DNA of 64,000 nt from Escherichia phage U1G. The position numbers and the translations under genes were made by a program. Every line of letters starts with the position of its first letter. Position 1 is the stretch's first letter. The stretch lies in sequence record NC_070872.1. One strand, written 5' to 3'. Below the pieces are notes generated by a model, which worked only from the letters and a program-made list of their open reading frames with translations, did no database searches and was not told the DNA's origin. This document shows positions 27,942 through 28,050 of the stretch, piece by piece.

Positions 27942-28023
27942 CCCAAAGGTGTATGGTAGTTTTTACCGAAAGGTACTGAACTACCCGACAAAGTAGTAAG
28001 GCTCTAGAAGCCAACAAAATAAA

Positions 28024-28048
28024 AGCCCCTCATTAGAGGGGCTTTTTC
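28024..28048. terminator. bidirectional rho-independent terminator
   Basis: Stem agcccctc / gaggggct, loop atta, T-runs on both strands; 3 nt downstream of the vRNAP stop and after the plus-strand ORF 27549..27941. Confidence 0.55.
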
Positions 28049-28050
28049 AT

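Follow-up and report, generated by a model that had tools for sequence, protein, structure and literature searches.

Ju et al. are said to have described, in 2019, bidirectional intrinsic terminators between convergent E. coli genes (cited in PMC9163698). At an E. coli bidirectional terminator, RNA polymerase (RNAP) is stopped from both sides, and the stem-loop positions the head-on collisions (Wang et al., bioRxiv 10.1101/2022.10.23.513370). The closest described case in a phage comes from LUZ7, in which four regions terminate bidirectionally, and three of these separate convergent genes (PMC9163698). LUZ7 terminator T50 (TTS 43803(+); sequence AAAAAGAAAGGGGAGCAUUAGCUCCCCUUCUUCUUU; Table 1 of PMC10204088) lies between convergent genes, showed bidirectional termination in the late-infection transcriptome, and is regarded by the authors as a canonical bidirectional intrinsic terminator (PMC10204088). 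Its termination efficiency in ONT-cappable-seq is 90% (PMC10204088; PMC9163698), and its antisense activity in a terminator-trap assay is 99.4% in E. coli, 97.6% in P. aeruginosa and 96.9% in P. putida (PMC10204088). The T50 hairpin, GGGGAGC-AUUA-GCUCCCC, is 7 nt from the stop codon of the virion RNA polymerase (vRNAP) gene; the LUZ7 record places the end of ORF72 within the loop (43790) and that of the vRNAP gene, gp073, at 43804. Judged by its place in the sequence, T50 is the positional counterpart of the hairpin in Escherichia phage U1G that we describe here.

Transcription in this group of phages is best framed by N4. In that phage, vRNAP and the T7-like RNAPII synthesize the early and middle transcripts, which are directed rightward. 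The late transcripts are directed leftward and are the product of host sigma70 RNAP with N4SSB as its activator; middle and late transcription can be simultaneous (PMC4496689). Hairpin-dependent intrinsic termination is common to single-subunit phage RNAPs (PMC11347151). Our literature search found no transcript mapping specific to the site analyzed here for N4, G7C or Gamaleyavirus, and no documentation of N4-type RNAPII termination at such signals. In the genus Gamaleyavirus, the element is already described, as a prediction: the records of phages PhAPEC5 and PhAPEC7 carry two overlapping “terminator” features at the hairpin, one per strand, predicted by ARNold.

A hairpin between converging gene blocks in phage U1G

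The window, i.e., the whole stretch of U1G DNA that was analyzed, is 64,000 nt long. A 2-kb query around the hairpin matched 57 GenBank phage records with 80–95% identity. Almost all of these records belong to Gamaleyavirus phages of Escherichia or Shigella, and the best matches are ~92–93% identical. Going by these matches, the window is from a Gamaleyavirus (Schitoviridae, Enquatrovirinae), an N4-like coliphage among the G7C-like relatives of N4. ORFs are on the plus strand for 1–27941 and then on the minus strand for 28051 to ~61352, and the GC skew switches sign at ~28 kb. Hence, the claim of an earlier note, made from the letters and ORFs of the window, that the hairpin marks the meeting point of the plus-strand block and the late block holds up. 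The plus-strand block encodes thymidylate synthase, rIIA, primase, SSB and a RuvC-like resolvase, with the PF13876 gene last. The N4 counterpart of this replication/nucleotide-metabolism block is the “middle” gene class. The features at the junction are as follows:

27471–27492, plus strand: terminator-like hairpin AAGTCCCTC-TTCG-GAGGGACTT, then TTTTATTT; 5' of the PF13876 gene; fold z −4.1
27549–27941, plus strand: PF13876 gene (Pfam name “N4 Gp49/Sf6 gene 66”), 130 aa; E 2.2e-25; phrog_322
27942–28020, plus strand: 3' spacer from the PF13876 gene to the hairpin, 79 nt
28013–28024, minus strand: predicted U-tract of minus-strand (vRNAP, late) transcripts; AACAAAATAAAA on the plus strand, UUUUAUUUUGUU on the minus strand
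28021–28046, both strands: full palindromic hairpin, stem AAAAGCCCCTC/GAGGGGCTTTT, loop ATTA; the 11-bp form folds at about −18 kcal/mol on either strand
28025–28042, both strands: GC-rich core GCCCCTC/GAGGGGC, a 7-bp stem with a 4-nt loop; −13.7 (plus) and −14.3 (minus) kcal/mol
28043–28052, plus strand: predicted U-tract of plus-strand transcripts, TTTTTCATTT; overlaps the spacer and the first bases of the opposite-strand vRNAP stop codon
28051–38823, minus strand: vRNAP ORF, 3590 aa as listed; “virion RNA polymerase” in the annotations of relatives

The vRNAP gene (10.8 kb) is the final gene of the minus-strand block, and its stop codon is at 28053–28051. Its true start is probably a downstream ATG rather than the start of the listed ORF. 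On the other side, the PF13876 gene is the last plus-strand gene with family support. A 74-aa ORF at 27772–27996 was considered as a gene and rejected, as it has no Pfam match and overlaps the PF13876 gene out of frame. The two genes form a convergent pair, and the hairpin is intergenic, 3' of both the PF13876 stop (27941) and the vRNAP stop. The earlier statement that the hairpin lies downstream of the last plus-strand ORF is thus correct for the supported gene, which ends 79 nt upstream.

The records of PhAPEC5 and PhAPEC7 include a terminator annotation for the counterpart of the plus-strand hairpin at 27471–27492. In the interval 27493–27548, a promoter scan detected nothing that resembles a sigma70 promoter. 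Plus-strand traffic to 28021–28046 may therefore be light, because there is a terminator-like hairpin and no sigma70-like promoter before the PF13876 gene.

The site reads caacaaaat-AAAAGCCCCTC-ATTA-GAGGGGCTTTT-tcatttag; with more of the flanks, it reads CAACAAAAT AAAAGCCCCTC ATTA GAGGGGCTTTT TCATTTAG. A scan finds a perfect stem in which 28021–28031 pairs with 28036–28046, giving 11 bp with G:C at six. Within it, the core pairs 28025–28031 with 28036–28042, the loop is 28032–28035, and the remainder of the stem includes the A:U pairs that flank the GC core. The “8-bp GC-rich hairpin” reported earlier is therefore real but only approximately measured: the core has 7 bp and the whole stem 11 bp, with 8 bp corresponding to the core plus one A:U pair. 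The same is true of its position, given as 3 nt past the vRNAP stop. The hairpin is indeed that close, but the exact spacer is 4 nt to the 11-bp stem or 8 nt to the GC core. The U-runs claimed for both strands are present: the RNA tail after the stem is UUUUUCAUUU on the plus strand and UUUUAUUUUGUU on the minus strand, and the 8-nt flanks of the hairpin have six T and seven A.

Rfam 15 gave no family at the gathering score anywhere in the window. Sub-threshold matches around 27928–28105 were to the sRNA/leader models BSnc120, Ysr49, Phe_leader and STnc100; we rejected these as families, and they are best explained by terminator hairpins inside those models.

An ORF-poor stretch lies upstream of the PF13876 gene. 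The ~1.4 kb at 25950–27350 have no convincing ORF. Among 141 matching records from N4-like phages of Escherichia, Klebsiella, Shigella and Edwardsiella, many share this sequence with 84–95% identity, and it is mostly unannotated there. Four T-arm-like motifs lie within 26600–27170, inside the ORF-poor interval 25960–27345: GGTTCGAGTCC at 26821, GGTTCGAATCC at 26937, GGTTCAATTCC at 27068 and GGTTCGATTCC at 27143, with an encoded CCA after some of them. Neither ARAGORN at default settings nor Rfam finds a tRNA in the stretch. ARAGORN calls four tRNA-like structures only when relaxed with -ps80, and these are over-long (80–96 nt) and mismatched (26609–26688, 26754–26844, 26875–26970 and 27012–27097). 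N4 and other relatives have one to four normal tRNAs in the corresponding region. The T-arm-like motifs are possibly decayed or non-canonical tRNA genes.

The hairpin is more than a chance event

There are several lines of evidence that the hairpin is not due to chance. For a 56-nt RNA spanning it, the folding energy is −21.3 kcal/mol (z −5.7) when read from the plus strand and −24.8 kcal/mol (z −6.6) when read from the minus strand; 200 shuffles produced no equally good fold. In a consensus terminator scan of 20000–38000, the strongest terminator-like site on both strands is 28021–28046. This generic scan showed no overall enrichment of terminator-like sites in that range, with 18 found and 13.2 ± 3.4 expected. 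For this reason, a stricter scan with shuffles was applied to the whole 64-kb window, for perfect hairpins with at least 7 bp and at least five G:C pairs. It found 12 hairpins, six with a T-run and two with both an A-run and a T-run; the means over 40 dinucleotide-preserving shuffles were 2.1 hairpins, 0.2 with a T-run and no two-sided hairpins. The hairpin is more than chance.

The other two-sided hairpin in the window, GACCTCC-TCCG-GGAGGTC at 6681–6698, lies between co-directional plus-strand ORFs, after the thymidylate synthase gene (5722–6666). Because it is between co-directional genes, two-sided flanks alone are no proof of two-way use. The clearly one-way terminators of the window have merely 3–4 A upstream. 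Two more strong GC hairpins have their better T-run on the plus strand: one at 45572–45589, between minus-strand ORFs 44902–45540 and 45608–46810, and one at 61963–61988, in the divergent gap between the end of the minus-strand block (61352) and the start of a plus-strand ORF (62015).

Conservation of the hairpin across the Schitoviridae

In PhAPEC7, PhAPEC5 and St11Ph5, the hairpin and loop are identical to those of U1G and are at an equal distance from the vRNAP stop; the adjacent upstream sequence cannot be aligned. To look further afield, the C-terminal 400 aa of vRNAP were used as a query, and 27 metagenomic loci with 57–98% amino-acid identity were retrieved from IMG/VR, 26 of which include the vRNAP stop codon and were scored. 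A GC-rich hairpin lies 7–19 nt past the vRNAP stop in 25 of these 26 N4-like loci, with 5–7 A in the 8 nt before it and 4–7 T in the 8 nt that follow; convergent ORFs on the opposite strand lie beyond it. At locus L021 (3690–3760), there is no hairpin with an A-run and a T-run in the 80 nt past the vRNAP stop. The locus that appears to be N4 itself (L015) has GCCCCTC-TAAT-GAGGGGC. The distant loci have unrelated stems, such as GGCCACC, GGGGAACC, GGCTCCC, CCCCCAAG... and CGGCCCC, among others.

An alignment of 15 distinct versions of the hairpin has changes on both sides at six of the seven core pairs, with 98% of cells paired; none of 500 shuffles matched this covariation, and no slid register came near it. 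This count is partly circular, since the hairpins were picked by complementarity, and the informative fact is that there is a hairpin at this position almost everywhere.

A wider sample comprised eight further Schitoviridae genera taken from 466 tblastn-positive records. The convergent arrangement at the vRNAP 3' end is found in all eight, and the succession of A-run, hairpin and T-run in seven (PEV2, ZC08, Pollock, BUCT194, XC38, RHph_X2_28B and RiverRider). A terminator is annotated at the same position in PEV2 (“strong terminator”) and in Pollock. In roseophage R7L (L036, 1829–2010), the 182-nt intergenic region has a GC hairpin without U-runs. R7L and L021 are thus the two related loci without the canonical signal, which counts against a strict rule.

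Two observations on the sequence of the palindrome deserve mention. Acinetobacter phage XC38 (L039) and Xanthomonas phage RiverRider (L041) have the same stem as the coliphages, GCCCCTC/GAGGGGC, just past the vRNAP stop, with vRNAP C-termini that are ~24% (XC38) and ~60% (RiverRider) identical to that of U1G. This could reflect convergence or retention. In addition, the loop can be inverted in an otherwise identical palindrome: it is ATTA in the U1G window, St11Ph5 and PhAPEC7, and TAAT in HK2 (L032). Likewise, it is TATT in L011 and AATA in L012, and loci L017 and L007 are also concerned. It is as if the whole palindrome had been flipped.

A variable accessory-gene slot beside the hairpin

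An accessory-gene slot with variable contents (27942–28024 in U1G; ~3100–3160 and 3476–3503 in locus L003; also in L033 and L032) has the hairpin as its fixed right border. In PhAPEC7, PhAPEC5, ECBP1 and N4, the slot holds a Tad2-like gene (PF11195) of 160–163 aa that ends beside the hairpin. St11Ph5 and ZQ2 have a phrog_29107 gene there, and other relatives have a crAss001_48-like gene (PF21825) or small unknown genes. In St11Ph5, nithesis and PhAPEC7, the same spacer that follows the PF13876 gene in U1G leads into a second, weaker hairpin and then one or more accessory genes. The flanks of this second hairpin closely resemble those of the vRNAP-proximal hairpin, such that the pair forms a direct repeat of ~40 nt. 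In the U1G window and in HK2, the slot is empty, and the 3' spacer of the PF13876 gene is joined straight to the vRNAP-proximal hairpin. On comparison of these sequences, the arrangement in U1G and HK2 would be consistent with a deletion between the two repeats or, for the other phages, with an insertion.

A tentative extension of this idea is that the vRNAP-proximal terminator and its ~40-nt upstream paralogue (AAAATAAAAGCCC[C]TC...GAGGG[G]CTTT.TCATTTA) might be direct-repeat joints at which recombination inserts, swaps or deletes small accessory or anti-defence genes. We consider this possible but somewhat doubtful. If true, U1G and HK2 would be the “empty-slot” product of recombination between two terminator copies, and terminators would double as cassette borders in the Schitoviridae.

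How does the hairpin act?

Very probably, the element at 28021–28046, where the rightward replication (“middle”) block faces the leftward late block, is a canonical bidirectional intrinsic (Rho-independent) terminator. The earlier note had read the hairpin as a bidirectional terminator, and this reading gains support from the both-strand annotation in PhAPEC5 and PhAPEC7, from the positional conservation across the Schitoviridae and from the T50 counterpart in LUZ7. It builds on observed properties of the hairpin, namely its sequence, structure, position, non-randomness and conservation.

Could the hairpin work in only one direction? It might end the vRNAP late transcript only, with the U-run on the plus strand being a by-product of an A-tract that strengthens the minus-strand terminator; or the reverse might hold, with termination on the plus strand only. 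The position of the plus-strand terminator-like hairpin 27471–27492 ahead of the PF13876 gene, with no sigma70-like promoter detected in between, fits the first version, since few polymerases may reach the site from that side. The occurrence of an A-run and T-run hairpin between co-directional genes at 6681–6698 also argues for one-way use, as does the finding that most LUZ7 phage terminators are largely monodirectional when inverted (PMC10204088). Nevertheless, we think a one-way terminator is unlikely. All 25 hairpin-bearing IMG/VR loci retain the A-run that separates the vRNAP stop from the stem (5–7 of 8 nt), even where the stems differ, whereas the clearly one-way terminators of the window have just 3–4 A there. 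ARNold predicted terminators on both strands in PhAPEC5 and PhAPEC7, and the LUZ7 counterpart stops the transcripts of both strands in vivo (PMC10204088). Moreover, the PF13876 gene is a real one, with its 3' end 79 nt upstream, and its transcription has to proceed in the direction of the hairpin.

Two other explanations do not involve polymerase release. The hairpin could mainly stabilize or mark RNA 3' ends, by blocking 3'-5' exonucleases or by serving as an RNase cut mark. Both mRNAs would end in a stable stem-loop (−14 to −18 kcal/mol), and the LUZ7 authors point out that some mapped 3' ends may be due to processing and that terminators also stabilize mRNA (PMC9163698, PMC10204088). Yet U-runs directly after the stem are unneeded for stabilization and are conserved on both strands, and the LUZ7 counterpart lowers expression of a downstream reporter in the trap assay, an effect on read-through rather than stability (PMC10204088). 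A mainly stabilizing or processing function is thus very improbable, although an RNA-stability role is compatible with termination and the roles are not exclusive. Alternatively, the element could act as DNA, either as an N4-type vRNAP hairpin promoter or as a cruciform that signals recombination or replication. It is a perfect 26-bp palindrome, its loop is inverted between close relatives (ATTA vs TAAT in HK2; TATT vs AATA in L011/L012), and it marks the border of a variable gene slot. We give this explanation hardly any credence, because in distant relatives the structure and the A/T-runs persist while the sequence changes, as would be expected of an RNA terminator more than of a DNA site recognized by a protein. 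The promoter version was rejected on its own merits. N4 vRNAP promoters have a 3-nt loop with −11A/G and −10G, −8G in the stem and +1C, and they are at the left, first-injected genome end (PMC4496689); the U1G hairpin has a 4-nt loop, ATTA/TAAT, without G, and is located mid-genome at the 3' ends of two genes.

For the bidirectional terminator, the following scheme can be proposed. On the minus strand, an RNA polymerase that has passed the vRNAP gene (by the N4 paradigm, host sigma70 RNA polymerase activated by the phage SSB) would make GCCCCUC-UAAU-GAGGGGC and then UUUUAUUUU. The hairpin would form in the RNA exit channel while a weak rU:dA hybrid occupies the active site, and the vRNAP transcript would be released ~8–20 nt beyond its stop codon. 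On the plus strand, polymerases that have passed the PF13876 gene (by the N4 paradigm, the T7-like phage RNAPII, possibly with host RNAP late in infection) would meet the mirror image, GCCCCUC-AUUA-GAGGGGC and then UUUUUCAUUU, and would stop just short of the vRNAP stop codon. We infer termination in both directions in U1G, and the polymerases that arrive, from the features of the site and from N4.

What would such an element do for the phage? The two blocks would be insulated from each other, such that neither vRNAP nor the replication genes are covered by antisense RNA. Polymerases would meet head-on at one defined spot only, and both mRNAs would have a protective 3' stem-loop. Two unrelated polymerases probably have to be stopped by this one hairpin: host RNAP coming along one strand and the T7-like RNAPII along the other. 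Beyond this, there is little new biology: the N4-like module boundary would be insulated by a compact two-way terminator of a kind that is annotated in close relatives and has been demonstrated in LUZ7. The practical value of the element is modest. At 26–40 nt, it is a candidate short bidirectional terminator part for E. coli, and for annotation of Gamaleyavirus genomes it is a reliable landmark for the middle/late boundary and for the adjacent variable accessory-gene slot.

Comparison with known systems

LUZ7 T50 and the U1G hairpin both belong to Schitoviridae and lie between the last rightward small gene and the vRNAP stop, at 7 nt in LUZ7 and 4–8 nt in U1G. Both have a 7-bp GC-rich stem, a 4-nt AUUA loop, flanking A- and U-tracts, and a predicted folding energy of about −14 kcal/mol. 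The stems differ, with GGGGAGC in LUZ7 and GCCCCUC in U1G. The convergent ORF72 ends in the loop of T50, whereas the nearest gene end in U1G is 79 nt away. LUZ7 is one of the Migulavirinae and has a Pseudomonas host, whereas U1G is one of the Enquatrovirinae. Finally, T50 is experimentally validated and the U1G element is predicted.

The terminator pair in PhAPEC5 (KF192075) and PhAPEC7 (KF562340) is the orthologous element: the genus, the hairpin and loop (AAAGCCCCTCATTAGAGGGGCTTTTT) and the distance to the vRNAP stop are all the same as in U1G. In those two phages, the annotated terminator is 2 nt from the end of a 162-aa Tad2-like gene, which the records list as N4 gp49-like. U1G, by contrast, does not have the Tad2-like gene, and the hairpin is preceded by the PF13876 gene and the 79-nt spacer.

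With the bidirectional terminators of E. coli, the U1G element shares a GC-rich stem-loop, an A-tract and a U-tract, and a location between convergent genes (bioRxiv 10.1101/2022.10.23.513370). The difference is likely to be in the traffic: by analogy with the N4 paradigm (PMC4496689), the polymerases that converge on the U1G hairpin are probably of two kinds, the host multisubunit RNAP from one side and the phage T7-like RNAPII from the other.
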